Source: Antedon mediterranea
Taxonomy: Eukaryota > Animalia > Echinodermata
DNA: 64,000 nucleotides
Assembly: GCF_964355755.1 (NCBI RefSeq)
Contig: NC_092678.1
Location: 15,791,881-15,855,880 of the forward strand
Reading direction: 5' to 3'
The first letter of the stretch is position 1. Every line of letters starts with the position of its first letter. The notes under the pieces were generated by a model. The model was not told where the DNA came from. It ran no database searches and saw nothing but the letters and a program-made list of their open reading frames with translations. Below are positions 13,425 to 64,000 of the stretch, in pieces. Both the position numbers and the translations under genes were made by a program.

Positions 13425-13825
13425 TTGGTTATCCGCACTTGGCGGATAACCCCTTGTTATTGTCAGGATCTTTTTTTTTTTTTTTTTTTTTTTCTATGTT
13501 ATTAGTTATCCGCTTAGTAGCGGATAACTCCTTGTAATCGTCCTGGATCTTTTTTTTTTTTCTTTATTAGTTATCCGCTTAGTAGCGGATAACTCCTTGT
13601 AACTGTATGAAATCATCTTTTTTTTCTGTATTATTGGTTATCCGCACTTGGCGGATAACCCCTTGTTATTGTAAGGATCTTTTTTTTTTTCTATCTTATT
13701 AGTTATCCGCTTAGTAGCGGATAACTCCTTGTAACTGTATGAAATCATCTTTTTTTTTTTTTTTTTTTTTTTAGTTATCCGCTTAGTAGCGGATAACTCC
13801 TCGTAACTGTATGAAATCATCTTTT
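13425..13825 (+). repeat. Stack of six 5' heads (loops ACTTG, TTAGTA, TTAGTA, ACTTG, TTAGTA, TTAGTA)
   Basis: Palindromes start at ~13425, 13502, 13567, 13634, 13699 and 13771, each followed by a T tract. Confidence 0.9.
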
Positions 13826-14948
13826 TCTGTATTATTCTTTCTTTCTGTCAATTTTGTGTCTCGCGTATCTCAAAAACTTGTAAACAAAACATTTTATAAC
13901 TTTGTCAACATGTGGGCATTCACGTGAAATTGTGCACCTCCTATTGTGAATGACGTCAGAATTGCGCAACGTGATTTACGCGCATTTTAATGAATTTCGC
14001 GTATTTAACATAGATCGAAAACCATATAGCAATTAAATTAGAGCACGATTCAGGTCATTTTAAGCGTTTAAAAAATTGCCACTGGTGCGCACATTTTTAC
14101 GCGCGCACGGCGCAGGGAACACGTATGAGCATTTCTTTTACACGAGTTGTGTTTTTAAATCTTCGGTTAACAATTTAACGTTATTTTATTCACTTTTCAA
14201 CTTGAAATGGCGTTCTACGAGCACGTTAAACATGACAGGTTGCGCACAAAAACGTCAACAAATTGTGAAAATGTTCCAAAATATGTATACTTTTAAAAAT
14301 GAAACAGTTCATCAGAATGCAAGGTTACCCTCATTTTTTATTTTAATTTCTTGCAGTGTATTAATCATAGCTCTGATTTATTATAGTCTTGAATGTTAAA
14401 AAGTGTTTGATGGCTACATTATTTGCATATTAAATGTAATTTTTGAAATAATTATCATCAAACAAACATAAACATATTCAAAGAGTAAAACAATAAACAT
14501 AACGTTTATTTTTTTTCTTTACATGTTAATATATAAAACTTGAAAGTATGCACTTTCATAATATGTCACTGTTTAAAATTTGTGAAGATTTCATCATAGT
14601 AAAAATTATGATTTAAGTTGATTATGTAATAATCAACTTGCATCGAGTGGGTTCACGACATACCAAATGAACGAGGACTCTTTCTTCGGATTTTCTTCAG
14701 CAGGTGCTCATATGGCTGGATGTGTAGTGCACCCGACTTTGGTATCAGAGGTACCGGGTTCGAATCCCATAATGGGAAAACAATTAATTAAAAGGATTTA
14801 TTTGGTTATTACACTGAAAGGGCAGTTTTAATTTTGAATAGGCTACTATTTGGAAAAATCACAACTGAAAAGTACTTGAATGCGCAAGATACGTTTTGTT
14901 GCTGGCGGATAACCAAACTCGTCCTCAAGTGACGAGTTTAAGTTCTAG
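13771..14948 (+). mobile_element. Chimeric HINE (TTAGTA-type 5' part fused at ~14035 to a CTCAA-type 3' part)
   Basis: The 5' part matches the 19697 body and the 3' part matches 15650-16565; CTAG end at 14945-14948. Confidence 0.8.
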
Positions 14949-16565
14949 TTGGTTATCCGCCTCAAGCGGATAACCTTTGTTATTGTAGTGTTACTTTTTT
15001 TTTTTATTATTCTTCTTTCTTTCTCCGATTTTGTGTACGCGTTTTCTCTTGAACGTGTTAACATAACATTTTGTAACTTGGTCAACATATAGACAATTAA
15101 CTGAAGATGTACTGCGAAGCTTTTTGACAATGTCAGATCCGCGTAGCGTAAGTTACGCGCGATTTTCTGAAAATCTTAAATCGGTCATAACTTCGAAACC
15201 GATAAATATTTTTTAACGAAATTTTCAGCCCCGTTTTCTTCACATCAATGGCTAACTTTTTCGCTCTTCAGCAAATTTTTGAACACTAGAAAGTCTGCGC
15301 GTAAACTGCGTTTGAAATTTTAAAATGCTCCTAATTTGTGCACGCTGTTTCTCTGTAACGCGTTAACATAACATTTTGTAACTTGTTCAACATATAGACA
15401 TTTTACTGAAGTTGTCCAGCCAAGCTTTTTGACGATGTCAGAGCCGCGTAGCGTAAGTTACGCGTGATTTTCTGAAAATCTTAAATTGGTTATAACTTCG
15501 AAACAAATGAATATTTTTAACGTCATTTTCAGCCACGTTTGCTTCACATCAATAGTTAACTTTTTTAACGCTATCACAATTTGTAACATTAGAAAGTGCG
15601 CGCGTAAATGGCGTTTGAAATTTTAAAATGCTTCAAATCAATTTCTGATTAAATTAGAGCACGATTCAGGTCATTTTAAGCGTTTAAAAAATTGCCACTG
15701 GTGCGCACATTTTTACGCGCGCACGGCGCAGGGAACAGGTATGAGCATTTCTTTTACACGATTTGTGTTTTTAAATCTTCGGTTAACAATTTTACGTTAT
15801 TTTATTCACTTTTCAACTTGAAATGGCGTTCTACGAGCACGTTAAACATGACAGGTTGCGCACGAAAACGTCAACAAATTGTGAAAATGTTCCAAAATAT
15901 GTCTACTTTTAAAAATGAAACAGTTCATCAGAATGCAAGGTTACCCCCATTTTTTATTTAAATTTCTTGCAGTGTATGAATCATAGGTCTGATTTATTAT
16001 AGTGTTGAATGCTAAAACGTGTTTGATGGCTACATTATTTGCATATTAAATATAATTTTTGAAATATTTATCATCAAACAAACATAAACTTATTCAAAGA
16101 GCAAAACAATAAACATAACATTTATCTTTTTTCTTTACATGTTAATATATAAAACTTGAAAGTATGTACTTTCATAAAATATCAGCGTTTAAAATTTTTG
16201 AAGATTTCATCATAGTAAAATTTATGATTTAAGTTTGATATGTAATAATCAACTTGCATCGAGGGGGTTCACGACATACCGAATGAACGAGGACTCTTTC
16301 TTCGGATTTTCGTCAGCAGGTGGTCATATGGCTCGATGTGTAATGCAACCGACTTTGGTATCAGAGGTACCGGGTTCGAGTCCCGTCACGGGAAAACAAT
16401 TAATTAAAAGGGTTTAGTTGGTTATTACACTGAGAGGGCAGTTTTAATTTTGAATAGCCTACTTTTTTGGAAAAGTCATAACTTGGAAGTACTTGAATAC
16501 GCAAGATACGCTTTGTTGCTGGCGGATAACCAAACTCGTCCTCAAGTGACGAGTTTAAGTTCTAG
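14949..16565 (+). mobile_element. Complete HINE, CTCAA-loop subfamily (D)
   Basis: Head GGTTATCCGCCTCAAGCGGATAACC, ~304 bp internal duplication (15030/15334), tRNA-like segment, 3' hairpin and CTAG. Confidence 0.88.
16321..16393 (+). promoter_or_regulatory. tRNA-derived segment with Pol III A/B-box-like motifs inside D-type HINEs (also ~14703-14776 and ~17881-17953; minus strand ~33895-33968 and ~38177-38250)
   Basis: TGGCTCGATGTG (A-box-like) ... GACTTTGGTATCAGAGGTACCGGGTTCGAGTCCCG (T-arm/B-box). No intact acceptor stem. Confidence 0.6.
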
Positions 16566-19696: not shown

Positions 19697-22096
19697 TTTT
19701 TTTTCTGTATTATTCTTTCTTTCTGTCAATTTTGTGTCTCGCGTAACTCAAAAACGTGTAAACATAACATTTTATAACTTTGTCAACATGTGGGCATTTA
19801 CGTGAAATAGTGCACCTCCTATTGTGAATGACGACAGAGTTGCGCAACATGACTTACGCGCGTTTTTACAAATTTCGCGTATTTAATATAGATCGAAAAT
19901 CATATAACAATTTAAATTGAAACTTAAAGCCCCATTCCCTACGTTTTTTAGATCTAATTTAAGATCACAAACTATATTTAATGTAAAAATAATACTATAT
20001 GGTCCTATTGCGATAACTTTTTTCGTCTTTAAACGGTTAAAAATGTGAAAAATAAATCGATTTTAATAATTATAGCGGCCCGCTATAAATCCCAAAATGC
20101 ATTGCGCGTGGATTGATATTGTTGTTTTTCACCTGTAATTCGCCCACTTTTCGATCGATCGTGAAGCCAAAACAAATGGAAGACTCCTAACTTTTCAGCG
20201 AAAATACCGGGTTTTCCCCAATTTGTATCAACGGAGTCTGGCAAAAATAGAAAGACAATTAATGCAGCAACTATACAACGTCAGGCTAGGTATATAGCTA
20301 GCGTACGATGTTCGTACGTTACCGATGTTTACCAGCTAGGCCTACAAAACTAAGCCTGGCTAGGCTAGGCCTGAGACCGTCCACGAGAGGTCGATCGCCG
20401 CGAGCTACTTAGGTAGTGCATTGTTTCTCACTTTTTATCATAATTTACCATAAAACGTACATTTAAGACAAGGAATGACATGGTTTAATGTTTTTAAAGT
20501 GATATATATGTATTATTTTCCAAAAAACGTCCAAAATTGCAGGGAAGGGGTCTTTAACAAAAGTTTAATTTATATCTTGCGCTAACTGACTGTGGGGAAA
20601 AAATGGCATGTTTCACACGAAGTTACGCGCGCATGCGCGTTTAAAATTTCAAATTGAGAAAAATCAATTTCAACAGTCATTTTGAGCATGTCAAAAATTC
20701 CCACGCGTGCGCATTTTTTTACGCGTGCGGTGCACACGTAGGGTTGAAAACAATTTTTTTTTCCGTGATTTATGTTTTTCCACCCTTTTTTAGTAATTTT
20801 ACCAATTTCTAAACATTTTCGACTTAAAATCACGTCATACGGGCACGTCGAATTGCGCAACGTGACTTACGCGCGATTTAACGATTTTGTCGTATTTAAC
20901 ATAGCTCGACAACCAAATAACATTTCAACTTGAAACTTTGCAAAAGTTTAATTTATATCATGCGCTAACTTCCTGTTGAAAAAAAATTGCGTGTTTTAAA
21001 CAAAGTTACGCGCGCACGCGCATTTAAAATTTCAAAATGCGCAAAATTAATTTAAAATCAACTTTCTACGCGTTCCATGTTGTTTTAAGCATGTCAACAA
21101 TTCCCACGCTCGCGCACATTTTTACGTGTGCGGTACGCACGTAGCATTGAAAACGTATTTTTTTCGCGTGATTTATATTTTTCCAGCCTTTTCTAGTAAT
21201 TTTACCAAATTTTAAACAATTTCGACTTAAAGATACCTCATACGAGCACGTCGAATTGGACAATTTGTGCGCGTTTTTTATGAAAAGGTTAAAAAATTCG
21301 TTTAAAATATGCCTTTTTTTAAACAGTCGTAATTTCTAAACTAGACGGTCAACTTTTTGTGGATGGCATATTCTGGAAGTAAATGAGTTGTAGATATCGG
21401 ATCAGGTATTAATATGGCTAACCGGACATTGTGACGTCATCGTATGGCCACACGAATATAAAATTTAGGATTTTTGTATCTTTCGTCATAGCTCATCACA
21501 TTGAATAGAGCGCATCTCCACTTATCCGTTTTCCATTTTCACCCCGATTTTGATATTGTCTAGGTCAATCAAGTATCTTTCGCATGAGTTAAAAATATTT
21601 TAATTTTTTGACGTCATCATGCCTAAAAATGTAAATCACGTGTGGCATTAATTTCATCTTTACAGTAAATTTTAATCTGTTATAGCTCGTAAGAATAAAA
21701 TGTGATAATCACGATTAAAACTTTTTCTGGAAGCTATTGGATTGTAGATACGAAATTATGAAAAAATGTTGCCAATCGGATGTTGTGACGTCATCATATG
21801 GCCAGTTAAATAAAAAAGGTCGTATCTTCATCTTTTGCGTCATAATTCATTACATTTAAAAGAGCGCGCATCAATATTTCACGTATTCAAATTTCTTCTA
21901 CACGCTAATACGTTGTTGCTGAGATAATTTCATTTCGGAATTGCTACCTTCGCGTTTCATTTTAAAACTGTCAACGTGTTAAAAATTGCAATAAATAGCG
22001 GGTCCCGTAATTTCACCTATTCTATGTATGTCACTGTATGTGATATGGATACAGATTATACGGTGTATACTATATATCAATTTAAATAATAAAATT
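19697..22096 (+). mobile_element. Chimeric HINE body (switches to C-type at 20851-20855), interrupted by a MITE and broken at 22096; it continues at 41517
   Basis: Ends ...AAATAATAAAATT, whereas an intact copy reads AAATAATAAAATTCAGCAATAACAACATATC (50221-50250). Confidence 0.82.
19928..20553. mobile_element. Kolobok-like non-autonomous DNA transposon (MITE), 626 bp
   Basis: TTAA duplicated at 19924-19927 and 20554-20557 (intact copies read AACTTAACGAAAG). Imperfect TIRs AGCCCCATTCCCTAC / GCAGGGAAGGGGTCT. RR...YY ends with a TTAA TSD fit Kolobok better than piggyBac. Confidence 0.8.
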
Positions 22097-22937
22097 AGAC
22101 AATATCAAAATCGGGGTGAAAATGGAAAACGAATAAGTGGAGATGCGCTCTATTCAATGTGATGAGCTATGACGAAAGATACAAAAATCCTAAATTTTAT
22201 ATTCGCGTGGCCATACGATGACGTCACAATGTCCGGTTAGCCATATTAATACCTGATCCGATATCTACAACTCATCTACTTCCAGAATATGTCATCCACA
22301 AAAAGTTGACCGTCTAGTTTAGAAATTACGACTGTTTCAAAAAAGGCATATTTTAAACGAATTTCTTAACCTTTTCATAAAAAACGCGCGCAAATTGTCC
22401 AATTCGACGTGCTCGTATGACGTATCTTTAAGTCGAAATTGTTTAAAATTTGGTAAAATTACTAGAAAAGGCTGGAAAAACATAAATCACGCGAAAAAAA
22501 TACGTTTTCAATGCTACGTGCGCACCGCACACGTAAAAATGTGCGCACGCGTGGTAATTTTTTACATGCTTAAAACGAGATGAAACGCGTAGAAAGTTGA
22601 TTATAAATTATTTTTGCGCATTTTGAAATTTTAAATGCGCGTGCGCGCGTAACTTTGTGTAAAACACGCAATTTTTTTTCAACAGAAATTTAGCGCATGA
22701 TATAAATTAAACTTTTGCAAAGTTTCACTTTAAAATGTTATTTGGTTTTCGACATATGTTAAATACGAGAAAATCGTTAAATCGCGCGTACGTCACGTTG
22801 CGCAATTGTACACATCATGAAAAGCTTCGCTTGACGACGTTACATAAATGTCAAAATGTTAACATAGTTAACAAAATGTTATGTTTGCAAGTTTTAGAGA
22901 AAAGCGTTACACAAAAATCATACAGAAAGAAAGAAGA
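22097..22937 (-). mobile_element. 3'-truncated C-type HINE body (its head is at 41394-41461)
   Basis: The rejoined sequence ATCATCA|TCTTTTTCTTAA|TCTTCTTTCTTTCTG resembles the intact copy at ~48850-48880. Confidence 0.75.
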
Positions 22938-24538
22938 CTAGACATGTAACTCGTCACTTTGACGAGTTTGGTTATCCGCCGCGCAAGTGGTGCAACATTA
23001 ACATTAAGGGGATAGGTTGAGGACAAAAGGAAGTGTTCACGTTGGCATTATGACCTGAACTGAAGAATATGATCTGTTGTTATTGCTGAATTTTATTATT
23101 TAAATTCATATATAGTATACACAGTATAATCTGTATCCATATCACATACAGTGTAGAATAGGTGAAATTACGGGACCCGCTATTTATTGCAATTTTTAAC
23201 ATGTTGATGGTTTTAAAATGAAACGCGAAGTTAGCAATTCCGAAAGCAAATTATCTCAGCAACAACGTATTAGCGTGTAGAAGAAATTTGAATACGTTAA
23301 ATATTGATGCGCGCTCTTTTAAATGTAATGAATTATGACGAAAAAGATGAAAATACGACCATTTTTATTTAACTGGCCATATGATGACGTCACAACATCC
23401 GATTGGCAACATTTTTACATAATTTCATATCTACAATCCAATAGCTTCCAGAAAAAGTTTTAATCGTGATTATCACATTTTATTCTTACGAGCTATAACA
23501 GATTCAAATTTACTGTAAAGATGAAATTGATGCCACACGTGATTTAAATTTTTAGGCATGATGACGTCAAAAAAATTAAAATATTTTTAACTCATGCGAA
23601 AGATAGTTGATTGACCTAGACAATATCAAAATCGGGGTGAAAATGGAAAACGGATAAGTGGAGATGCGCTCTATTCAATGTGATGAGCTATGACGAAAGA
23701 TACAAAAATACTAAATTTTATATTCGCGTGGCCATACGATGACGTCACAATGTCCGGTTAGCCATATTAATACCTGATCCGATATCTACAACTCATCTAC
23801 TTCCAGAATATGTCATCCACAAAAATTTGACCGTCTAGTTTAGAAATTACGACTGTTTAAAAAAAGGCATATTTTAAACGAATTTTTTAACCTTTTCATA
23901 AAAAACGCGCGCAAATTGTCCAATTCGACGTGCTCGTATGACGTATCTTTAAGTCGAAATTGTTTAAAATTTGGTAAAATTACTAGAAAAGGCTGGAAAA
24001 ACATAAATCACGCGAAAAAAATACGTTTTCTATGCTACGTGCGCACCGCACACGTAGAAATGTGCGCACGCGTGGGAATTTTTGACATGCTTAAAACGAC
24101 ATGAAACGCGTAGAAAGTTGATTATAAATTAATTTTGCGCATTTTGAAATTTTAAATGTGCGTGCGCGCGTAACTTTGTGTAAAACACGCAATTTTTTTT
24201 CAACAGAAATTTAGCGCATGATATAAATTAAACTTTTGCAAAGTTTCACTTTAAAATGTTATTTGGTTTTCGACATATGTTAAATACGATAAAATCGTTA
24301 AATCGCGCGTACGTCACGTTGCGCAATTGTAAACATCATGAAAAGCTTCGCTTGACGACGTTACATAAATGTCAAAATGTTAACATAGTTAACAAAATGT
24401 TATGTTTGCGAGTTTTAGAGAAAAGCGTTACACAAAAATCATACAGAAAGAAAGAAGAAGAATAAAAAGTTGATGATGATGATGATGATTTCGTACAATC
24501 ACAAGAGGTTATCCTGCAACTTCGTTGCGGATAACCAA
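22938..24538 (-). mobile_element. Complete C-type HINE (head GGTTATCCGCAAC-GAA-GTTGCAGGATAACC)
   Basis: Head and CTAG end are both present and contiguous. Confidence 0.9.
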
Positions 24539-24550
24539 TTAAGAAAAAGA

Positions 24551-26053
24551 CTAGACATGTAACTCGTCACTTTGACGAGTTTGGTTATCCGCCGCGCAAG
24601 TGGTGCAACATTAACATTAAGGGGAGAGGTTGAGGACAAAAGGAAGTGTTCACGTTGGCATTATGACCTGAACTGAAGAATATGATATGTTGTTATTGCT
24701 GAATTTTATTATTTAAATTCATATATAGTATACACAGTCTAATCTGTATCCATATCACATACAGTGTAGAATAGGTGAAATTACGGGACCCGCTATTTAT
24801 TGCAATTTTTAACATGTTGACGGTTTTAAAATGAAACGCGAAGGTAGCAATTCCGAAAGGAAATTATCTCAGCAACAACGTATTAGCGTGTAGAAGAAAT
24901 TTGAATACGTGAAATATTGATGCGCGCTCTTTTAAATGTAATGAATTATGACGCAAAAGATGAAAATACGACCTTTTTTATTTAACTGGCCATATGATGA
25001 CGTCACAACATCCGATTGGCAACATTTTAACATAATTTCGTATCTACAATCCAATAGCTTCCAGAAAAAGTTTTAATCGTGATTATCACATTTTATTCTT
25101 ACGAGCTATAGCAGATTAAAATTTACTGTAAAGATGAAATTGATGCCACACGTGATTTCAATTTTTAGGCATGATGACGTCATAAAAATTAAAATATTTT
25201 TAACTCATGCGAAAGATAGTTGATTGACCTAGACAATATCACAATCGGGGTGAAAATGGAAAACGGATAAGTGGAGATGCGCTCTATTCAATGTGATGAG
25301 CTATGACGAAAGATACAAAAATCCTAAATTTTATATTCGCGTGGCCATACGATGACGTCACAATGTCCGGTTAGCCATATTAATACCTGATCCGAGATCT
25401 ACAACTCATCTACTTCCAGAATATGCCATCCACAAAAAGTTGACCGTCTAGTTTAGAAATTACGACTGTTTAAAAAAAGGCATATTTTAAACAAATTTTT
25501 TAACCTTTTCATAAAAAACGCGCGCAAATTGTCCAATTCGACGTGCTCGTATGACGTATCTTTAAGTCGAAATTGTTAAAAATTTGGTAAAATTACATGA
25601 AAAGGCTGGAAAAACATAAATCGCGCGAAAAAAATACGTTTTCAATGCTACGTGCGCACCGCACACGTAAAAATGTGCGCACGCGTGGGAATTTTTGACA
25701 TGCTTAAAACGACATGAAACGCATAGAAAGTTGATTATAAATTAGTTTCGCGCATTTTGAAATTTTAAATGCGCGTGCGCGCGTAACTTTGTGTAAAACA
25801 CGCAATTTTTTTTCAACAGAAAGTTAGCGCATGATATAAATTAAACTTTTGCAAAGTTTCAAGTTGAAATGTTATTTGGTTTTCGACATATGTTAAATAC
25901 GAGAAAATCGTTAAATCGCGCGTGCCATTGTAAACATCATGAAAAGCTTCGCTTGACGACGTTACATAAATGTCAAAATGTTAACATAGTTAACAAAATG
26001 TTATGTTTGCAAGTTTCAGAGAAAAGCGTTACACAAAAATCATACAGAAAGAA
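24551..26053 (-). mobile_element. C-type HINE body (head at 29237-29328)
   Basis: The junction rejoins exactly to TATTCTTCTTCT|TTCTTTCTGTAT, as in the intact copy at 24441-24464. Confidence 0.85.
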
Positions 26054-27575
26054 CTAGACATGTAACTCGTCACTTTGACGAGTTTGGTTATCCGCCGCGC
26101 AAGTGGTGCAACATTAACATTAAGGGGATAGGTTGAGGACAAAAGGAAGTGTTCACGTTGGCATTATGACCTGAACTGAAGAATATGATATGTTGTTATT
26201 GCTGAATTTTATTATTTAAATTCATATAGTATACACAGTATAATCTGTATCCATATCACATACAGTGTAGAATAGGTGAAATTACGGGACCCGCTATTTA
26301 TTGCAATTTTTAACATGTTGACGGTTTTAAAATGAAACGCGAAGGTAGCAATTCCGAAAGGAAATTATCTCAGCAACAACGTATTAGCGTGTAGAAGAAA
26401 TTTGAATACGTTAAATATTGATGCGCGCTCTTTTAAATGTAATGAATTATGACGCAAAAGATGAAAATACGACCTTTTTTATTTAACTGGCCATATGATG
26501 ACGTCACAACATCCGATTGGCAACATTTTTACATAATTTCGTATCTACAATCCAATAGCTTCCAGAAAAAATTTTAATCGTGATTATCACATTTTATTCT
26601 TACGAGCTATAACAGATTAAAATTTACTGTAAAGATGAAATTAATGCCACACGTGATTTAAATTTTTAGGCATGATGACGTCAAAAAAATTAAAATATTT
26701 TTAACTCATGTGAAAGATAGTTGATTGACCTAGACAATATCAAAATCGGGGTGAAAATGGAAAACGGATAAGTGGAGATGCGCTCTATTCAATGCGATGA
26801 GCTATGACGAAAGATACAAAAATCCTAAATTTTATATTCGCGTGGCCATACGATGACGTCACAATGTCCGGTTAGCCATATTAATACCTGATCCGAAATC
26901 TACAACTCATCTACTTACAGAATATACTATCCACAAAAAGTTGACCGTCTAGTTTAGAAATTATGACTGTTTAAAAAAAGGCATATTTTAAACGAATTTT
27001 TTAACCTTTTCATAAAAAACGCGCGCAAATTGTCCAATTCGACGTGCTCGTATGACGTATCTTTAAGTCGAAATTGTTTAAAATTTGGTAAAATTACTAG
27101 AAAAGGCTGGAAAAACATAAATCACGCGAAAAAAATACGTTTTCAATGCTACGTGCGCACCGCACACGTAAAAATTTGCGCACGCGTGGGAATTTTTGAC
27201 ATGCTTAAAACGACATGAAACGCGTAGAAAACTGATTATAAATTAATTTTGCGCATTTTGAAATTTTAAATGCGCGTACGCGCGTAACTTTGTGTAAAAC
27301 ACGCAATTTTTTTTCAACAGAAAGTTAGCGCATGATATACATTAAACTTTTGCAAACTTTCAAGTTGAAATGTTATTTGGTTGTCGAGCTATGTTAAATA
27401 CGACAAAATCGTTAAATCGCACGTAAGTCACGTTGCGCAATTGTAAACATCATGAAAAGCTTCGCTGCACATCTTCATGTGCATGAAGATATGTTGAGAA
27501 AGTTACAAAATGTTATGTTTGCAAGTTTTAGAGAAAAGCGATCCACAAAAATCATACAGAAAGAAAGAAGACAAA
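26054..27575 (-). mobile_element. C-type HINE body, AGAAGACAAA variant (head at 29167-29236)
   Basis: The same head/body variant pairing occurs at 41324-41393 with 29329-30852. Confidence 0.82.
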
Positions 27576-29166
27576 CTAGACATGTAACTCGTCACTTTGA
27601 CGAGTTAGTTATCCGCACGACAAACGCCACGTGCACGTCATACGTTAGAATATTGCACACAGAAAAAATTATGGCATTATGACCTGATCTGAAGAATATG
27701 ATATGTTGTTAGTGCTGAATTCTGTCAATTTTGTGTCATATAGTATATACATGCAAACAGTATAATCTGTATACATGTTACATACAGTGTAGAATAGGTG
27801 AAATTACGGGACCCGCCATTTATTCAAATTTGTAAAAACATGGCGACGGTATCAAGATGAAACACTAAGATAGCAATTTCGGAAGCAAATTATCTCAGCA
27901 ACAACATATTAACGTTTAGAAGAAATTTGAATACGTTTAATATTGATGCGCGCTCTTTTAAATATAATGAACTATGATGCAAAAGATGAAAATACGACTT
28001 TTTTTATTTAACTTGCAATATGATGACGTCACAGCATCTGATTGGCAAAATGTTCACATGATTTCATATCTACAATCCAAGAGCTTCCAGAAAATGTTTT
28101 AATCGTGATTATCACATTTTATTTTGACGGGCTATTACAGATTAAAATTTACTGTAAAGATGAAATTAATGACCCACGTAATTAAAATTTTTAGGCATGA
28201 TGACGTCATAAAAATTAAAATATTTTTATCTCATGCGAAAGATAGTTGATTGACCTAGACAATATTAAAATCTCGGAGAAAAAGAAATACGTATAAGCGT
28301 GATGCGCTCCATTGAATGTGATGAGCAATAACGAAAGACAAAAAAATCCTATATTTTACATTCGTGTGGCCATATGATGACGTCACAACATCCGTGAGGT
28401 AAAAATTCTACATGAATTCATATCTACAACATATCTGCTTACATATTAAGTTAAAAAAATTAGGGGTAATCGTTGATCTTGAGAAGCTATAAAACATTCA
28501 AAATAGGCATAATTTTGACAACATTTTGTAACTTTTTCAACTAAAACGCGCGCAAATGGGCTAAATCAACGTGTTCGTATGACGTCATTTTAATTTGAAA
28601 TGATGTCAATCTTTTTGAAAATGACTAGGAAAGGCTGGAAAATCACAATTCAAGAGAAAAAAACATGATTTTCATGCTCTATGCGCACCGTGCGCGTAAT
28701 ATTTTTCGCGCGCGCGGTAATTTTGTACATGCTTAAAATGACATGAAACGCGTAGAAAGTTGATTAGAAATTATTTTTGCGCATTTTGAAATTTTAAATG
28801 CGCGTGCGCGCGTAACTTTGTGTAAAACACGCAATTTTTTTCAAACAGAAAGTTAGCGCATGATATAAATTAAACTTTCACAAAGTGTCAAATAAAAATC
28901 ACTTTTAGTTTTTAATCTATGATCAATCATAAAAAATCATAAAATCGCGCGTAAGTCACGTTACGCAACTCTGACGTAATTCAAAAATAGGAGGTGCAGA
29001 ACTTCACGTAAATGCCCACATGTTGTCAAAGTTATAAAATGTTATGTTTACAAATTTTAGAGAAACGCTCTACACAAAAATAGCGAGAAAGAAAGAAGAA
29101 TAATACAGAAAAAAATATTGATCCCATACAATAACAAGGAGTTATCCGCCAAGTGCGGATAACTAA
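27576..29166 (-). mobile_element. Complete HINE, ACTTG-loop head
   Basis: Head GTTATCCGCCAAGTGCGGATAAC at 29141; CTAG end at 27576. Confidence 0.88.
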
Positions 29167-29328
29167 TAAAAAGTTGATGTTGATGATTTCGTACAATCAC
29201 AAGAGGTTATCCTGCAACTTCGTTGCGGATAACCAAAGAAGAAGAATAAAAAGTTGATGATGATGATGATGATGATGATTTCGTACAATCACAAGAGGTT
29301 ATCCTGCAACTTCGTTGCGGATAACCAA

Positions 29329-41516: not shown

Positions 41517-41669
41517 CAATAACAACATATCATATTCTTCAGTTCAGGTCATAATGCCAACGTGAACACTTCCTTTTGTCCTCAACCTATCCCCTTAATG
41601 TTAATGTTGCACCACTTGCGCGGCGCGGCGGATAACCAAACTCGTCAAAGTGACGAGTTACATGTCTAG
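41517..41669 (+). mobile_element. 3' remainder of the element broken at 22096
   Basis: CAATAACAACATATC...C-type 3' end with CTAG. Confidence 0.85.
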
Positions 41670-44870: not shown

Positions 44871-45025
44871 TTTGCTATTTCTCAGTTAATTGTTATAGTA
44901 TTGCATATTATATGTACAGTATACCATATGAATGGTAGTATTTTTTTGTGTTATTGCTAGAACAATGATTTTGTAAATATTTAACAAATGGTATATGAAT
45001 TGTAATTTAATTTAATTTTTTGGAA

Positions 45026-48900: not shown

Positions 48901-51900
48901 TCTCTAAAACTTGTAAACATAACATTTTGTAACTTTCTCAACATATCGTCATGCACATGAAGATGTGCTGCGAAGCTTTTCATGACGTTTACAATTGCGC
49001 AACGTGACTTACGCGTGATTTAACGATTTCCTCGTATTTAACATAGGTCGAAAACCAAATAACATTTCAAATTGAAACTTTCCAAAAGTTTAATTTATAT
49101 CATGCGCTAACTTTATGTTGAAAAAAAATTGCGTGTTTTACACAAAGTTACGCGCGCACGCGCATTTAAAATTTCAAAATGCGCAAAATTAATTTCTAAT
49201 CAACTTTCTACGCGTTTCATGTCGTTTTAAGCATGTAAAAAATTCCCACGCGTGCGCAAATTTTTACGTGTGCGGTGCGCACGTAGCATTGAAAACATAT
49301 TTTTTTCGCGTGATTTATGTTTTTCCAGCCTTTTCTAGTAATTTTATCAAATTTTAAACAATTTCGACTTAAAGTTACGTCATACGAGCACGTCGAATTG
49401 GACAATTTGCGCGTGTTTTTGATGAAAAAGTTCAAAATTCCGTTAAAAATATGCCTTTTTTTAAACAGTCGTAATTTCTAAACTACACGGTCAACTTTTT
49501 GTGGATGACATATTCTGGAAGTTGATGAGTTGTAGATATCGGATCAGGTATTAATATGGCTAACCGGACATTGTGACGTCATCGTATGGCCACACGAATA
49601 TAAAATTTAGGATTTTTGTATCTTTCGTCATAGCTCATCACATTATATAGAGCGCATCTCCACTTATTCGTTTTCCATTTTAACCCCGATTTTGATATTG
49701 TCTAGGTCAATCAACTATCTTTCACATGAGTTAAAAATATTTTAATTTTTATGACGTCATCATGCCTAACAATTTAAATTACGTGTGGCATTAATTTCAT
49801 CTTTACAGTAAATTTTAATCTGTTATAGCTCGTAAGAATAAAATGTGACAATCACGATTAAAACGTTTTCTGGAAGCTATTGGATTGTAGATACGAAATA
49901 ATGTAAAAATTTTGCCAATCGGATGTTGTGACGTCATCATATGGCCAGTTAAATAAAAAAGATCGTATTTTCATCTTTTGCGTCATAATTCATTACATTT
50001 AAAAGAGCGCGCATCAATATTTCACATATTCAAATTTCTTCTACACATTAATATGTTGTTGCTGAGATAATTTTCTTCCGAAATTTCTACCTTCGCGTTT
50101 CATTTTAAAACCGTGAACATGTTAAAAATTGCAATAAATGGCGGGTCCCGTAATTTCACCTATTCTACACTGTATGTGATATGGATACAGATTATACTTT
50201 GTATACTATATATGAATCTAAATAATAAAATTCAGCAATAACAACATATCATATTCTTCAGTTCAGGTCATACGTGAACACTTCCTTTTGTCCTCAACCT
50301 ATCCCCTTAATGTTAATGTTGCACCACTTGCGCGGCGGATAACCAAACTCGTCAAAGTGACGAGTTACATGTCTAGTTCTTCTTTCTTTCCCGGATTTTT
50401 GTGACCAGCATATCTCTATTGCTTGTGAACATAACTTTGTATAACTTGGTAAAAAGATTGACATTGAAGTGTAGATGTGCAGCCAACCTTTTGGACGATG
50501 TCAGATCGGCGTTGCGTAAGTTACGCGCGATTTTATGAATTTCGCGTATTTAACATAGACTAAAAACCAAATGTCATTTTGTAATAACACTTGGAGAAAA
50601 TTTAAGTCATATCAAGTGCAAACTTTCTATGGATTAAAAATGGCATGTTTCACATAAAGTTACGCGCGCACGCGCGTTTAAAATTTCAAAATGCGTAAAA
50701 TCAATTTCTAATCAATTTTCTACGCGTTTCAGGTCATTTTGAGCATTTCAAAAATTCCCACGCGTGCGCAATTTTTTTACGCGCGTGTGGGCACTTAGCG
50801 CAAAAACATCTTTTTTTTGCTTGATTTTTGTTTTTTCAGCCTTTTCTAGTAAATTTACCAATTTTCAATCAATTTCGACTTCAAATCACGTCATACGAGC
50901 ACGTAGAATTGAACAATTTGCGCGCGTTTTTGATGAAAAAGTTCAAAAATTCGTCAAAATTATGCCTTTTTTAAAACAGTCATAGATTCTAAACTCCGTG
51001 GTGAACTTTTTTATAATTACATATTCTGGTAGTAGATGAGTTGTAAATATCGAATCATGTATCAATATGGCTATCAGGACATTGTGATGTCATCGTATGG
51101 CCACTCGAATATAAAATATATGATTTTTTTCTCTTTCGTATAGCTCATCACATTTAATAGAGCGCATCTCCACTTATCGGTATTCCATTGCCCTCCATTT
51201 CTATATATTGTCTATGTCAATCAATTATCTTTCGCATGATTCACCATTTAAAAAATTGTTATGACGTCATCATGTGCAAAAGCGTCAATAACTTTGGTCA
51301 CTTATTTTCAACTATTCTGAACTGTATGTAGTACGTATACGGTATATAGTGTATACCGTATACACTTTGACGTGACGCAAGATAGAGAGCGCACTCACAT
51401 TTTTTCAATGGCATAATCGTTTTTCTGCGCGCAATATTCCAACGTATGACGTGCACGTGACTTTAGGACTGCGGATAACCTAACTCATCCGTAGTGACGA
51501 GTTCAAATCTAGTTTTTCTGTATTATTCTTCTGTCTTTCTTCCTTTTTTTGTGAGCCTTGTTTCTCTAAAATGTGTAAACAGAACATATCATAACTTTGT
51601 CAACATATAGATATTTACGTGAAGTTGTGCACCTCCTATTTTTGAAAAAAGTCACAGTTGCGCAACGTGACTTGCGCGCAATTTTATGAATTTAAATGAT
51701 TGATCATAGATTAAAAACGGAAAGTCATTTTGTATTGAGACTTGGTGAAAATTTAATTCATATCAAGAGTCAACTTTCTGTGGATTAAAAATGGCATGTT
51801 TCACACAAAGTTACGCGCGCACGCGTATTTAAAATTTTAAAATGCGAAAAATCAATTTCTAATCAACTTTCTACGCGTTTCTTGTCATTTTGAGCATGTC

Positions 51901-54555
51901 AAAAATTCCCACACGTGCGCAAATTTTTACGCGCGAGGGGCGCATGTAGCGTTAAAAACATACTTTTTTCATGTGATTTATGTTTTTCCAGCTTTTTCTA
52001 GTAATTTTACCAACTTTTAAACAATTTCGACTTAAAATTACGTCATACGAGCACGTCGAATTGGATAATTTGCGCGCGTATTTCATCAAAAAGCTAAAAA
52101 AAATCGTCAAAATTATGCCTTTTTTTAAACAGTCGTAGTTTCTAAACTAAACGGTGAAAGTTATTTTTATTACATATTCTGGAAGTTGATGAGTTGTAGA
52201 TATCAAATCATACATTAATATGGCTAACAGGACATTGTGACGTCATCGTATGGCCACGCGAATATAAAATATAGGATTTTTGTCTCTTTCGTTATTGCTC
52301 ATCACATTCAATGGAGCGCATCACGCTTATCCGTATTCCATTTTCTCCGAGATTTTAATATTGTCTTGGTCAATCAACTACCTTTCAAATGAGTTAAAAA
52401 TATTTTAATTTTTGTAACGTCATCATGCCTAAAAATTTTAATTACGTGGGTCATTAATTTCATCTTTACAGTAAATTTTAATCTGTTATCGCTCGTAAGA
52501 ATAAAATGGGATAATCACGATTAAAATGTTTTCTGGAAGCTATTGGATTGTAGATACGAAATCATGTAAACATTTTGCCAATCGGATGTTGTGACATCAT
52601 CATATGGCCAGTTAAATAAAAAAAGTCGTATTTTCATCTTTTGCGTCATAGTTCATTACATTTAAAAGAGCGCGCATCAATATTTCACGTGTTCAAATTT
52701 CTTCTACACGTTAATATGTTGTTGTTGAGATAATTTCCTTCCGAAATTGCTACATTCACGTTTCATTTTGAAACTGTCAATATGTTAAAAATTTGAATAA
52801 ATAGCGGGTCCCGTAATTTCACCTATTCTACACTGTATGTGATATGTATACAGATTATACTGTGTATACTATATGACACAAAATAACAGAATTCAGCAAT
52901 AACAACATATCATATTCTTCAGTTCAGGTCACAATGCCATAATCTTTTTCTGTGTGCAATATTCCAACGTATGATGTGCACGTGGCGTTTGTCGTGCGGA
53001 TAACTAACTCGTCAAAGTGACGAGTTTCATGTCTAGTATATTATTCTTCTGTCTTTCTCCCTCACTTTTTGTGCAGAGCGTATCTCTAAAATGGGTAAAC
53101 ATAACATTTCATAACTTTGTCAACATATGGGCATTTACGTGAAGTTGTGCACCTCCTATTTTTGAATGACGTCAGAGTTTCGCAACGTGACTTACGCGCG
53201 ATTTTATGATTTTTTATGATTGCTCATAGACTAAAAACCAAGCATAATTTAGTTTTGACACTTTGTGAAAATTTAAGTCATATCAAGTGCAAACTTTTTA
53301 TTGATTAAAAATGGCATGTTTTACAAGAAGTTACGCGCGCACGCGCATTTAAAGTTTCAAAATGCGTAAAATTAATTTTTAATCAACTTTTTACACGACT
53401 CATGACATTTCGCGCATGTCAAAAATTCCCACGTGCACGCATTTTTTTACGCGCGCGGTGGCCACGTACCGTGAAAAACATCTTTTTTTCTCATGAATTA
53501 TGTTTTTCCAGCCTTCTAGAGTAATTTTACCATGTTAAAACCATTTGTGACTTTAAATTACGTCATACGAGCACGTCGAATTGGAAAATTTACGCGCGTT
53601 TTTGACCAAAAAGCTAAAAAAATCGTCAAAATTATGTCTTTTTTTAAACAGTCGTAGTTTCTAAACTAAACGGTGAAAGTTATTTTTATTACATATTCTG
53701 GAAGTTGATGAGTTGTAGATATCAAATCATACATTAATATGGCTAACAGGATATTTTGACGTCATCATATGGCCACACGAATATAAAATAAAGGATTTTT
53801 GTCTCTTTCGTTATTGCTCATCACATTCAATGGAGCGCATCACGCTTATCCGTATTCCATTTTCTCCGAGATTTTAATATTGTCTAGGTCAATCAACTAC
53901 CTTTTGCATGAGTTAAAAATATTTTAATATTTGTAACGTCATCATGCCTAAAAATGTTATATACTTGGGTCATTAATTTCATCTTTACAGTAAATTTTAA
54001 TCTGTTATCGCTCGTAAGAACAAAATGGGATAATCACGATTAAAATGTTTTCTGGAAGCTATTGGATTGTAGATACGAAATCATGTAAACATTTTGCCAA
54101 TCGAATGTTGTGACGTCATCATATGGCCAGTTAAATAAAAAAAATCGTATTTTCATCTTTTGCGTCATAGTTCATTACATTTAAAAGAACGCGCATCAAT
54201 ATTTCACGTGTTCAAATTTCTTCCACACGTTAATATGTTGTTGCTGAGATAATTTCCTTCCGAAATTGCTACATTCGCGTTTCATTTTGAAACCGTCAAT
54301 ATGTTAAAAATTTGAATAAATAGCGGGTCCCGTAATTTCACCTATTCTACACTGTATGTGATATGTATACAGATTATACTGTGTATACTATATGACACAA
54401 AATAACAGAATTCAGCAATAAAAACATATCATATTCTTCAGTTCAGGTCACAATGCCATAATCTTTTTCCGTGTGCAATATTCCAACGTATGACGTGCAC
54501 GTGGCGTTTGTCGTGCGGATAACTAACTCGTCAAAGTGACGAGTTTCATGTCTAG

Positions 54556-56138
54556 TTAGTTATCCGCTTAGTAGCGGATAACTCCTTGTGATTGTAGTGG
54601 ATCAATATTTTTTTTTTTTTTCTGTATTATTCTTATTTCTTTCCCATTTTTTTGTGAGTCACGTTTCTCTAAAATGTGTAAACATAACATTTTATAACTT
54701 TGACAACATGTGGGCATTTACGTGAAGTTGTGCATCTCCTATTTTGAATGACGTCAGAGTTGCGCAACGTGACTTGCGCGCGATTTTATGATTTTTATTG
54801 ATTGATCATAGCTTAAAAACCAAGAGTAATTTTTTTTTACCCTTTGTGAAAATTTAAGTCATATCAAGGGCAAACTGTTAGTGCACTAAAAATGGCATGT
54901 TTTACAAAAAGTTACGCGTGCACGCGCAATTAAAATTTCAAAATGCGCAAAATTAATTTCTAATCAACTTTCTACGCGTTTCATGTCATTTTAAGCATGC
55001 AAAAAATTCCCACGCGTGCGCACATTTTTACGTGTGCGGTGCGCACGTAGCATTAAAAACATATTTTTTTCGAGTGATTTATGTTTCTCCAGCCTTTTAT
55101 AGTAATTTTACCAACTTTTAAACACTTTCGACTTAAAGTTACGTCATACGAGCACGTCGAATTGGACAATTTGCGCACGTTTTTGAGGAAAAATTACAAA
55201 AATTTGTCAAAATTATGCCTTTTTTTAAACAGTCGTAATTTCTAAACTACACGGTCAACTTTTTGTGGATGACATATTCCGGAAGTTGATGAGTTGTAGA
55301 TATCGGATCATGTATTAATATGTCTAACCGGACATTTTAACGTCATCGTATGGCCACGCGAATATAAAATTGAGGATTTTTGTATCTTTCGTCATAGCTC
55401 ATCACATTTAATAGAGCGCATCTCCACTTATCCATTTTCCATTTTCACCCCGATTTTGATATTGTCTAGGTCAATCAACTATCTTTCGCATGAGTTAAAA
55501 ATATTTTAATTATTATGACGTCATCATGCCTAAAAATTTAAATTACATGTGGCATTAATTTCATCTTTACAGAAAATTTTAATCTGTTATAGCTCGTAAG
55601 AATAAAATGTGATAATCACGATTAAAACGTTTTCTGGAAGCTATTGGATTGTAGATACAAAATCATGTAAAAATTTGGCAAATCGGATGTTGTGACGTCA
55701 CCATATGGCCAGTTAAATAAAAAAAGTCGTATTTTCATATTTTGCGTCATAGTTCATTACATTTAAAAGAGCGCGCATTAATATTTTACGTATTAAAATT
55801 TCTTCTACACATTAATATGTTGGTGCTGAGATAATTTCCTTCCAAAATTGCTATATCAGTGTTTCATTTTCATACCGTCACCATGTTAAAAATTGGAATA
55901 AATGACGGGACCCTTAATTTCGCCTATCCTACACTGTATTAATATGTATACATATTATACTATGCATACTGTAAATAGTATATGACACAAAATATACAGC
56001 ATTTAGCACTAACAACATATTTTACTCTTCAGTTCATGTCAATATGCCATAATTTTTTTCTGTGTCCAATGTATGACGTGCACGTGGCGTTTGTCGTGCG
56101 GATAACTAACTCGTCAAAGTGACGAGTTTCATGTCTAG
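54556..56138 (+). mobile_element. Complete HINE, TTAGTA-loop head
   Basis: Contiguous head, T-tract, body and CTAG end. Confidence 0.9.
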
Positions 56139-59100
56139 TTAGTTATCCGCACATGGCAGTGTGCGGATAACTCCTTGTTATTGTATGGGATCTTTTTTTT
56201 TTTTTTGGTTATCCGCAACTTTTTAAGTTGCGGATAACCCTTGTTATTGTAAATATCTTTTTTTTTTTCATCTTTATTCTTCTTTCTTTCCCGGATTTTT
56301 GTGCGCAGCATATCCCCTATTGCTTGTTACTATATCATATATATAACTTTTTCATCATATGGACATTTACCTGAAGTTGTGCACCTCCATATTTTGAATG
56401 ACGTCAGAGTTGCGCAACGTGACTTACGCGCGATTTTATGAATTTCAATGATTGGTCATAGATTATAAACCAAAAGTCATTTTGTTTTGACACTTAGTGA
56501 AAATTTAAGTCATATCAAGGGCAAACTTTCTATGGATTAAAAATGACATGTTTCACAAGAATTTAAGCGCGCACGCGCATTTAAAGTTTCAAAATGCGCA
56601 AAATTAATTTCTAATCAACTTTATACGCTGATCATGACATTTTGAGCATGTCAAAAATTCCCGCGCGCGCAAACAAATTTACGCGTATGGTGCGCACGGA
56701 GCATGAAAATCATGTTTTTTCTCTTGAATTTTGATTATCCAGCCTTTCCTAGTCATTTTAAAAAAGATTGACATCATTTCAAATTAAAATGACGTCATAC
56801 GAACACGTTGATTTAGACAATTTGCGCGCATTTTAGTTGAAAAAGTTACAAAATAATGTCAAAATTATGCCTACTTTGAATCTATTATAGCTCCTCAGGA
56901 TCAACCGTTACCCCCAATTTTTTTAATTTAATATGTAAGCAGATATGTTGTAGAAATGAATTCATGCAGAATCTTTACCCCTCGGATGTTATGACATCAT
57001 CGTATGGCCACACGAATGTAAAATATTGGATTTTTGACAGTTTCGTTATTGCTCATTACATTAAATAGAGCGCATATCGCTTATACGTATTCCATTTCCT
57101 CATATATTTTAATACTGTCTAGGTCAATCAACTATCTTTCGCATGAGTTAAAAATATTTTAATTTTTATGACGTCATCATGTCTAAAAATGTAAATAATG
57201 TGGGTCACTTATTTTTATCTTTACAGTAAATTTCAATCGGTTATAGCTCGTCAGAATTATAAGTGATGATCATGATTAAAACGTTTTCTGGAAGCTATTA
57301 GATTGTAGATACAAATTCATGTGAATATTTTGCCAATCAGATGTTGTGATGTCATCATATGGCCAGTTAAATTCAAAAAGACATATTTTCACCTCTTGCG
57401 TAAAAGTTCGTTGCGTTTAAACGAGAGCGCATCTCACTTTCACGTGCCCAAAATTCTTAAAATTTGTATTAATGTAATTATTTAGATAATTATCTTCTAA
57501 AATTGTTATCTTTATATGCCAATTTGATGACGTCATCGTGTTAATAATTGGATTTAAAAGATGGGTCTCGTAATTTCGTCTATTCTACACTGTATATAAC
57601 ATACAGTGTATTCTGTAAATACTGTAATATGTTGTATGCTACAAAATAGGTACAATTCAGCACTGTAAACGTATTTAAATCATGTAATTGGAAGGCATAA
57701 TAATTGTCAGCGTTCATATATTTTAAACGTATGTGCATGTTGCGTTTGCGCGGATAACCCGAACTCGTCAAAGTGACGAGTTCAAATCTAGTTTTCTGTA
57801 TTATTCTTCTGTCTTTCTTCCTTTTTTTGTGAGCCCTGTTTCTCTAAAATGTGTAAACAGAACATATCATAACTTTGTCAACATATAGATATTTACGTGA
57901 AGTTGTGCACCTCCTATTTTTGAAAAAAGTCACAGTTGCGCAACGTGACTTGCGCGCAATTTTATGAAGTTAAATGATTGATCATAGATTAAAAACTGAA
58001 AGTCATTTTGAATTGAGACTTGGTGAAAATTTAATTCATATCAAGAGTCAACTTTCTGTGGATTAAAAATGGCATGTTTCACACAAAGTTACGCGCGCAC
58101 GCGCATTTAAAATTTTAAAATGCGAAAAATCAATTTCTAATCAACTTTCTACGCGTTTCTTGTCATTTTGAGCATGTCAAAAATTCCCACACGTGCGCAA
58201 ATTTTTACGCGCGAGGGGCGCATGTAGCGTTAAAAACATACTTTTTTCGTGTGATTTATGTTTTTCCAGCCTTTTCTAGTAATTTTACCAACTTTTAAAC
58301 AATTTCGACTTAAAATTACGTCATACGAGCACGTCGAATTGGATAATTTGCGCGCGTATTTGATCAAAAAGCTAAAAAAATCGTCAAAATTATGCCTTTT
58401 TTTAAACAGTCGTAGTTTCTAAACTAAACGGTGAAAGTTATTTTTATTACATATTCTGGAAGTTGATGAGTTGTAGATATCAAATCATACATTAATATGG
58501 CTAACAGGACATTTTGACGTCATCGTATGGCCACGCGAATATAAAAAATAGGATTTTTGTCTCTTTCGTTATTGCTCATCACATTCAATGGAGCGCATCA
58601 CGCTTATCCGTATTCCATTTTCTCCGAGATTTTAATATTGTCTAGGTCAATCAACTACCTTTCGCATGAGTTAAAAATATTTTTATATTTGTAACGTCAT
58701 CAAGCCTAAAAATGTTAATTACTTGGGTCATTAATTTCATCTTTACAGTAAATTTTAATCTGTTATCGCTCGTAAGAACAAAATGGGATAATCACGATTA
58801 AAATGTTTTCTGGAAGCTATTGGATTGTAGATACGAAATCATGTAAACATTTTGCCAATCGGATGTTGTGACGTCATCATATGGCCAGTTAAATAAAAAA
58901 AAGTCGTATTTTCATCTTTTGCGTCATAGTTCATTACATTTAAAAGAGCGCGCATCAATATTTCACGTGTTCAAATTTCTTCTACACGTTAATATGTTGT
59001 TGCTGAGATAATTTCCTTCCGAAATTGCTACATTCGCGTTTCATTTTGAAACCGTCAATATGTTAAAAATTTGAATAAATAGCGGGTCCCGTAATTTCAC

Positions 59101-59314
59101 CTATTCTACACTGTATGTGATATGTATACAGATTATACTGTGTATACTATATGACACAAAATAACAGAATTCAGCAATAAAAACATATCATATTCTTCAG
59201 TTCAGGTCACAATGCCATAATCTTTTTCCGTGTGCAATATTCCAACGTATGACGTGCACGTGGCGTTTGTCGTGCGGATAACTAACTCGTCAAAGTGACG
59301 AGTTTCATGTCTAG
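56139..59314 (+). mobile_element. HINE with ACATGGCAGTGT head (body 57792-59314) containing nested HINE 56205-57791
   Basis: Two heads and two CTAG ends (57791, 59314). Confidence 0.86.
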
Positions 59315-62300: not shown

Positions 62301-62813
62301 GTGATAATCACGATTAAAACGTTTTCAGGAAGCTATGGTATTGTAGATACGAAATCATGTGAACTTTTCGCCAATCAGATGTTGTGACGTCATCATATGG
62401 CCAGTTAAATAAACAAAGTCATATTTTCATCTTTTGCGTCATAGTTCATTACATTTAAAAAAGCGCGCATTAATATTTCACGTATTCAAATTTCTTCTAA
62501 ACGTTAATATGTTGTTGCTGAGATAATTTTCTTCCGAAATTACTACCTTCGCGTTTCCTTTTGAAAACTAAAATAAAATATGGGTCCCGTAATTTCACCT
62601 ATTTTACACTGTTTGTGACATGTATACAGATTATACTGTGTATACTATATGACAGAAAATATACAGCATTCAGCACTAACAACACATCATATTCTTCAGT
62701 TCAGGTCATAATGACATAATCTTTTTCGGTGTGCAATATTCCAACGTATGACGTGCACGTGGCGTTTGTCGTGCGGATAACTAACTCGTCAAAGTGACGA
62801 GTTTCATGTCTAG
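59315..62813 (+). mobile_element. D head (unclosed) followed by two ACTTG heads and two bodies (ending 61010 and 62813; the second is chimeric at ~61335)
   Basis: Heads at 59315, 59372 and 59426; CTAG ends at 61007 and 62810. Confidence 0.85.
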
Positions 62814-62817
62814 TTTA

Positions 62818-64000
62818 TTGGTTATCCGCCTCAAGCGGATAAGCATTTGTTATTGTAGTGTTACTTTTTTTTTTTTTGGTTATCCGCCTCAAGCGGATAA
62901 GCTCTTGTTATTGTAGTGTTACTTTTTTTTTTTTTTTTATTGGTTATCCGCCTCAAGCGGATAAGCTCTTGTTATTGTAGTGTTACTTTTTTTTTTTTTT
63001 TTATTATTCTTCTTTCTTTCTCAGATTTTGTGCACGCGTTTTCTCTTGAACGTGTTAACATAACATGTTGTAATTTGGTCAACATTTAGACATTTAACTG
63101 AAGATGTTCAGCCAAGCTTTTGGTCGCTGTCAGATCCGCGTAGCGTAAGTCACGCGCGATTTTCTGAAAATCTTAAATCGGTCATAACTTCGAAACCGAT
63201 AAATATTTTTTAACGAAATTTTCAGCCACGTTTTCTTCACATCAATGGCTAACTTTTGGAATGTTTAACAAATTTTTAGAGATAAGAAAGTTTTCGCGTA
63301 AATTGCGTTTGAAATATTTTACTCTTCTTATTTTGTGCACGCTGTTTCTCTTCAACGTGTAAACATAATATGTTGTAACTTGTTCAGCATTTAGACATTT
63401 TACTGAAGTTGTCCAGCCAAGCTTTTTGACGATGTCAGAGCCGCGTAGCGTAAGTTACGCGTGATTTTCTGAAAATCTTAAATTGGTTATAACTTCGAAA
63501 CAAATGAATATTTTTTAACGTCATTTTCAGCCACGTTTGCTTCACATCAATAGTTAACTTTTTTAACGCTACCGCAATTTGTAACATTAGAAAGTGCGCG
63601 CGTAAACGGCGTTTGAAATTTTAAAATGCTTCAAATCAATTTCTGATTAAATTAGAGCACGATTCAGGTCATTTTAAGCGTTTAAAAAATTGCTACTGGT
63701 GCGCACATTTTTACGCGCGCACGGCGCAGGGAACACGTATGAGCATTTATTTTACACGATTTGTGTTTTTAAATCTTCGGTTAACAGTTTTGCGTTATTT
63801 TATTCACTTTTCAACTTGAAATGGCGTTCTACGAGCACGTTAAACATGACAGGTTGCGCACAAAAACGTCAACAAATTGTGAAAATTTTGCAAAATATGT
63901 CTACTTTTAAAAATGAAACAGTTCATCAGAATGCAAGGTTACCCCCATTTTTTATTTTAATTTCTTGCAGTGTATGAATCATAGCTCTGATTTATTATAT
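62818..64000 (+). mobile_element. Three D heads and a D-type body running off the window
   Basis: GGTTATCCGCCTCAAGCGGATAAG at ~62820, 62878 and 62942; the body matches 15005-15990. Confidence 0.88.

Follow-up and report, generated by a model that had tools for sequence, protein, structure and literature searches.

A nested stack of non-autonomous Helitron2-like elements in the genome of the echinoderm Antedon mediterranea

Most data on target choice by Helitron2 and Helentron transposons say just that the targets are "T-rich". Helitron2 inserts after TTTT, and the Fusarium Helitron2 elements FoHeli1/2 target TNAT (PMC3627910, PMC5148889). Among FoHeli elements the 5'-terminal 31-85 nt are found repeated, an arrangement explained by self-insertion, and in Metarhizium a single 5' end may have received two insertions (PMC5148889). 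Nested Helitrons have also been proposed as intermediates in the case of the maize multi-terminus Helitrons (PMC3288121), and a preference of Helitrons for landing close to one another has been described (Yang and Bennetzen 2009, cited in PMC12477314). Here we describe a locus of Antedon mediterranea that resembles these cases and exceeds them in scale. The window analyzed is a stretch of 64,000 nt (contig NC_092678.1, positions 15,791,881 to 15,855,880 of the forward strand), and all coordinates below are positions within it. From 13426 on the plus strand to 64000, where the edge of the window cuts it, the sequence looks like a tandem repeat; about 46 kb of this apparent repeat consists of copies of a non-coding element of about 1.6 kb, at least 38 in number, nested inside one another.

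A motif parse of 13426-64000 yields 38 element 5' ends, or heads, of which 37 are whole and the one at 41516 is truncated, together with 28 ends consisting of a hairpin and CTAG, and 91% of the sequence is family DNA. Self-comparison gives 20-35-fold repeat coverage with a unit of about 1.6 kb throughout, bar two gaps, both of which are foreign transposons. Neither motif occurs in 1-13425 or in the larger, 3.8-kb foreign insert, and none of 20 sequences simulated from a Markov model of the window contained a head or an end. An apparent 1.6-kb tandem repeat, which repeat annotators would label a satellite, can be an insertion stack. A tandem satellite or rolling-circle concatemer would consist of head-to-tail units whose neighbors are their closest relatives; this array does not, since 24 of its heads are displaced into stacks and 10 of the 12 end-to-head neighbors are non-sisters.

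The anatomy of the family is well represented by an unsplit copy of the S subfamily, 1582 nt long (54557-56138, plus strand) and 98% identical to a rebuilt split copy at 41726-48652. It opens with a 5' subterminal inverted repeat (subTIR; TAGTTATCCGC, 54557-54583) that forms an 11-bp hairpin with its downstream arm, followed at nt 50-92 of the element by what we call the landing zone (54606-54648), made up of a T run and a TAT/TTC-rich pyrimidine tract. This zone is empty here and occupied at nt 74 in the sister copy. The 3' terminus (56098-56138) holds a 3' subTIR (GCGGATAACTA, 56098-56108), a hairpin (56108-56128) and a terminal CTAG, then T. Across the family, heads begin with T[AG]GTTATCCGC and run through a small loop and the returning arm to CTTGT and a T/pyrimidine tract, while ends read GCGGATAAC[TC]A, an ACTCGTC/GACGAGT hairpin, CTAG and T. 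That last T follows CTAG at all 28 ends, and a T precedes each of the 25 whole heads that do not abut a sibling. Identity is 95-98% among N-subfamily copies and likewise within the S pair and the M pair, 80-90% in the main group and about 72% for the L type (2 of the 38 heads), while the C and D subfamilies are 50-60% identical to the main group.

These termini carry every feature examined of non-autonomous elements of Helitron2, or Helitron-like element 2 (HLE2). The 5' and 3' subTIRs match at 10-11 of 11 nt in 25 of 27 closed elements, as expected of this class, in which short terminal inverted repeats of 8-15 bp are asymmetric (ATIRs), 0-2 nt from the 5' end and about 20-30 nt from the 3' end; the other two score 9/11, and both are affected by a chimeric junction at 14032. 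Folding places the 5' ATIR in a hairpin in five of five subfamily examples (10-15-bp stems, -11.4 to -16.7 kcal/mol) and another hairpin directly after the 3' ATIR, again in five of five (9-10-bp stems). The T on either side of the elements and the single T added at rebuilt junctions agree with the T|T or TTTT|T/C insertion sites of the class. The published accounts of Helitron2 (PMC3627910) and HLE2 (HELIANO, PMC11417382), as far as available, share this layout, with a 5' ATIR 0-2 nt from the end and within a hairpin, a 3' ATIR some 30 nt from its terminus and before a hairpin, compensatory ATIR changes and no target-site duplication (TSD). They differ in that the Antedon window holds no RepHel partner and that deep nests and a fixed landing zone are not described in those parts. 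HINE/DINE-1 elements (PMC4067079; oyster Cg_HINE, PMC7492417) are similar in being non-coding, in their 5' subTIR with inverted repeat and microsatellite-like tract, in their 3' subTIR and palindrome, and in using T-rich targets without modifying them; the fixed 3' CTAG(T) of the Antedon family is unlike their described ends, and the oyster arrays are tandem repeats within one element, whereas here whole elements are mutually nested. Proto-Helentron (PMC4067079) has a 5' TT, a 3' CTAG and no TSD, and the Antedon ends can be read as TT[AG]G...CTAG at W|T, but its ends are described as Helitron-like, and those of the Antedon family have paired subTIRs and a 5' hairpin. A canonical Helitron1, marked by a 5'-TC start, an A|T target, a CTRR end and neither TIR nor 5' hairpin, was rejected: the CTAG end is present, but the start is T[T][AG]G with a subTIR and 5' hairpin. 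An earlier note on this DNA, made from the letters alone, had called the elements Helentron- or HINE-like. The terminal anatomy and lack of a TSD bear this out at the level of HLE2, while the strict Helentron label would imply a partner transposase with an AP endonuclease domain. There is no autonomous element in the window, Rfam has no match for the family, and Pfam found nothing above cut-off in the three searched of seven stop-free stretches of 100 or more amino acids. The end motif had no matches in metagenome, viral or prokaryote collections, which is uninformative for an animal repeat.

The positions of the heads are sharply restricted. Twenty-four lie 50-92 nt inside a host and 12 abut the CTAG-T of a sibling, with one outermost and one truncated, and not one of the 36 internal heads falls within the roughly 1.5 kb of an element body. 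Bodies are open to insertion, since two foreign transposons landed in them. The earlier observation that splits fall in a short A/T tract about 45-100 bp behind a head thus holds and can be narrowed, with all split sites at 50-92 nt from the host start. Immediately to the left of the 25 whole heads that do not abut a sibling stand TTAT (13), TTTT (8), TAAT (2), TCAT (1) and TCTT (1), which resemble the TNAT targets of FoHeli1/2 and the TTTT target of Helitron2, as far as these are described. When both strands of 13 intact copies are scanned for short T-rich motifs that resemble the target, 4.5-17% of the sites, depending on the motif, lie in the zone, as do 44% of T7 sites; although some of the events are duplicates, for six motifs the chance of finding 24 of 24 insertions inside it is at most 2e-9 on both strands and at most 1e-6 on the top strand alone. 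Hosts of the N subfamily lack any run of six or more Ts in the zone while their bodies have T7 runs (for instance the body at 24537), yet six of six sites are still in the zone. One N copy (37946-36382, minus strand) has lost the landing tract and has no child.

Where siblings are neighbors, they meet exactly (CTAG-T-head) in 12 of 14 cases. Six of these 12 abutments join different terminal classes and four more join copies 86-88% identical; class difference or this level of identity rules out a concatemer origin for 10 of the 12 joints. It had been proposed that each element carries a landing pad for its relatives and that the array grows by nesting. The zone is indeed carried by each element, and growth mainly by nesting is supported, but a third of internal heads (12/36) abut a sibling's CTAG end exactly and form a second class of target, which that proposal did not set apart. 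Orientation specificity, also put forward, falls away as a property of its own, for a T-rich target on one strand already fixes orientation.

Heads and bodies pair much as brackets do. The balanced sub-nest at 41671-59314 (plus strand) comprises nine elements to a depth of at most 4, and counting from 41670 confirms exactly nine heads and nine CTAG ends, with the string ((())((())))()(()). A minus-strand slab contains 15 heads (14 whole and one truncated) and 13 bodies (12 ends and one truncated body), also as previously counted. With this slab removed, the plus-strand nest has 23 heads and 16 ends, leaving seven heads unclosed at 64000, and reads (((((()())())((())((())))()(())((())(((. It begins with a stack of six heads at 13426, 13503, 13568, 13635, 13700 and 13772 (13426-13830, plus strand), each 65-77 nt into the preceding head. 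The first of these, the outermost, sits at TTAT|T within a different, AT-rich repeat; its flank, 13310-13425, is a deep repeat in short-read contigs, so the nest was seeded in another repeat.

When heads and ends of the minus and right-hand slabs are paired strictly last-in-first-out, all 11 closed pairs agree in subTIR class, where random pairing of open heads gives a mean of 7.3 (p=0.013) and first-in-first-out order 7/10; the match of head to family is likewise above random (p=0.013). Concordance within any single slab is not significant (p=0.06-0.17); adding the left slab gives 11/12 (p=0.028). A divergent D-subfamily element (34986-38004, minus strand), about 50-60% identical to others, encloses a child and pairs in this same order, and its head and 3' subTIR share the same compensatory changes. 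That said, the order suggested in the earlier note is not strict everywhere, being broken by deletions and by one surplus head. The latter, a C-subfamily head without a body (39682-39731, minus strand), leads strict pairing to match the C head at 39731 with an N-family body. In the left slab both split pairs are mis-paired, because an X body and a C body were joined into one by the 14032 deletion.

Excising elements innermost-first regenerates intact ones, as had been predicted. Rebuilt split junctions match unsplit sisters in five of five comparisons and split sisters in two of two, though in 2 of these 7 comparisons the pairing was adjusted to allow for the surplus head or for the 14032 deletion. 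The only differences are in T-run and ATC-repeat length plus scattered substitutions; one T is added per child and there is no TSD. Six split main-family copies rebuild to 1575-1595 nt, as against 1565-1600 nt for unsplit copies. The relative ages of subfamilies can be read from such nests.

Contrary to the earlier note, self-growth does not account for the whole array, since 19.4 kb of it is an inverted block and a 3.1-kb dimer was duplicated at 96-99% identity. The block (22100-41516, minus strand, the slab of 15 heads and 13 bodies) starts mid-head, ends mid-body and reaches a depth of at most 7, counting the truncated and surplus heads. It splits an N-subfamily element piece on the plus strand (20851-41669, in parts 20851-22100 and 41514-41669) that aligns contiguously to its sister at 96% over 1409 columns, with 3 nt lost and 1-nt microhomologies. 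The minus slab is therefore an inverted block inside a single element, and not a run of opposite-strand insertions. Simple inversion is disfavored because the outer flanks rejoin missing only 3 nt while the block starts mid-head and ends mid-body; inversion plus two deletions is a formal possibility. Most simply, a 19.4-kb piece of nest would have been copied or moved, inverted, into a break. The five N copies within the block form one clade (100/99 support).

The duplicated dimer joins an S and an M element (54557-59314, plus strand, 3.1 kb) and is 96-99% identical to that at 41726-53036. Both M copies carry an L-type child at the same site, the two children being only about 70% identical, and the sister hosts 41392 and 29235 have different children at the same base; unlike children at one site in sister hosts point to separate hits on that site. 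That both duplicated M hosts took an L-type child (at 48719 and 56206) may reflect subfamily-specific host choice (n=2). Deletions have also left their mark, with the chimeric junction at 14032 (plus strand), similar junctions at 20851 and 61335, and internal deletions at about 31460 and about 51320.

Taken as a whole, repeated nested self-insertion, in either an active or a passive form, is a highly probable origin for the stack. As to how far resident elements took part, we give an even chance to growth by new copies inserting at the 5' end of residents and guided by that end. A rolling-circle HUH transposase, supplied in trans, would be drawn to the hairpin at the resident's 5' end; the top strand next to it is T-rich and may be easily melted or peeled, and would be cut as single-stranded DNA. 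The incoming strand would be joined to this strand at TNAT|T or TTTT|T, making every child co-oriented; insertion would recreate the site before the new head, so that later arrivals would abut earlier ones; and each child would supply a new landing zone, so that depth would increase. The inverted block, duplicated dimer, deletions and orphan head would have come later, adding length and unbalancing the brackets in places. Helraiser transposase binds and cuts single-stranded DNA only, exactly at the 5' end, has circular intermediates and shows no local hopping (PMC4778049).

Several observations weigh against guidance by the resident end. The Helraiser biochemistry is that of Helitron1 and not of HLE2, and the window has no transposase gene, its longest stop-free stretch being 123 amino acids. 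The landing statistics come from one window, picked for being a nest, with no genome-wide denominator, and the events are partly non-independent, given the duplicated dimer and the five N copies of one clade in the inverted block. Parent and child belong to one subfamily in 12 of 29 cases (p=0.001 unstratified, leaving out three children with ambiguous or deleted parents), but within slabs a preference for kin disappears (p=0.18), and this sharing is local clustering, with kin preference unproven. Among the short-read contig matches listed, none bridges a junction unique to the nest. The outermost head lies in unrelated AT-rich DNA without a resident hairpin. Finally, in 12 of 13 intact copies no other 40-nt stretch of the element is as rich in pyrimidines as the landing zone: it has 33-37 of them, the rest of the top strand at most 29-31 and the bottom strand 25-28. 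The site might therefore be chosen for its sequence alone. The rival to guidance is a passive form of self-insertion, in which the transposase prefers long T/pyrimidine tracts, the best of which lies behind the head, and no end is recognized; we consider it a real but less probable possibility. The T-rich target preference known for HINEs (PMC4067079, as far as available) favors it, as do the outermost insertion into non-family DNA and the fact that the only copy without the tract (37946) is unsplit (n=1). It sits less well with the N copies, where the margin is small (33 vs 30-31) yet six of six sites are in the zone, with siblings that abut exactly instead of spreading along the T run, and with bodies hit in none of 36 cases.

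It is improbable that the array arose for the most part from a few original nests through duplication, unequal crossing-over, rolling-circle concatemers or composite (two-head or dimer) movement, although the S+M dimer occurring twice at 96-99%, the 19.4-kb inverted block, the single clade of five N copies at 95-98%, at least five deletion junctions and the surplus head (which composite transposition predicts, in the available text of PMC5148889) all speak for some such activity. The bracket balance is nearly intact, most neighbors are non-sisters of 50-90% identity, and the roughly 70% identical children in the duplicated M hosts, with the differing children in 41392 and 29235, point to separate insertions. 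Near-identical runs of heads (62819/62877/62941 and 41460/41392) and the one bodiless head might suggest that heads are a separate mobile unit of about 60 bp, or short tandem duplications, the bracket balance being coincidental. This idea is largely refuted and very improbable: head and body counts are equal in closed slabs, subTIR class agrees in 11/11 pairs including the divergent D element, and heads rejoin their bodies with base precision. Equally little credence is given to the idea that a high-copy repeat was mis-assembled. The family is very deep in short-read runs, no long reads were seen, and the joints of the inverted block look like fold-backs; but the copies differ by 2-50%, base-exact nesting with covarying ends is not an assembler product, and the same joint types occur in independent contigs.

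Those contigs come from short-read data. Part of the sequence was found in 11 runs, and the family in four of four runs examined, with a summed family depth of 1e5-1e6 in three runs versus 130-330 for single junction contigs, figures that do not translate into copy numbers. Two samples, each from a different study, have contigs in which an M host (56197 to 57792) is empty, as well as contigs with end-to-head joints and empty head-to-body joints; the same contigs contain head-to-head joints absent from the window, and many joints have short sides.

How new is such a structure? The earlier note knew of no description at this depth. In part this gives way, since self-insertion within the first stretch of the 5' end had been proposed for FoHeli, whose TNAT target is also similar. 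In part it stands, as no deep nest was found: FoHeli mostly shows two or more heads per one end, in fragmented assemblies (PMC5148889, available part), whereas the Antedon locus has tens of elements that keep their bodies and ends, in reverse order, over more than 46 kb. The maize elements are of Helitron1 type, their nests hypothetical and, in the accessible text, without a reported fixed landing zone (PMC3288121). The available parts of PMC13085455, PMC13286980 and PMC12477314 contain no deep nest, and no deep balanced HLE2 nest is described in the literature searched, which was mostly non-subscription and excluded supplements. The stack is larger than the published cases found; its class is known, the process of which it is a variant had been proposed before, and rearrangement built part of it. 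What is gained is scale and testability, not a new kind of system: the nest preserves nested intermediates that were merely hypothesized for Fusarium and maize, and the 36 of 36 internal insertions in a 43-nt zone or at a sibling junction make a sharp test of passive against guided landing. More speculatively, and with less than even confidence, HLE2 transposases might actively home on the 5' ends of resident relatives, on the exact 5' junction as well as on the T-rich strand at nt 50-92, the reverse of target immunity, as a general and undescribed route to macrosatellite-sized arrays in animals that would record their own order of insertion.

Two foreign transposons interrupt element bodies. 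The larger (42717-46481, 3.8 kb) has CAC...GTG ends, a 10-bp terminal inverted repeat (TIR) and a 4-bp TCAA duplication, and we take it to be Chapaev-like; it contains exon-like stretches and an internal duplication of about 480 bp, and a 114-aa frame within it (44321-44662) has a weak Card1-like Pfam match, below cut-off. The smaller (19928-20553, 626 bp), with a TTAA duplication and imperfect AG...CT TIRs, is presumably Kolobok-like. To the left of the nest, 1-12192 consists of about three tandem units of about 4.8 kb, 94-95% identical, with GTCT/GTCG microsatellite modules. Each unit has a piece resembling a D body (1586-2118, 6381-6861 and 10768-11263) and none of the nest head or end motifs. 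One unit only carries a 123-aa open frame, with no Pfam match, followed by a (TTA)n tail (4571-5035), which by eye looks like the 3' end of a long interspersed nuclear element.

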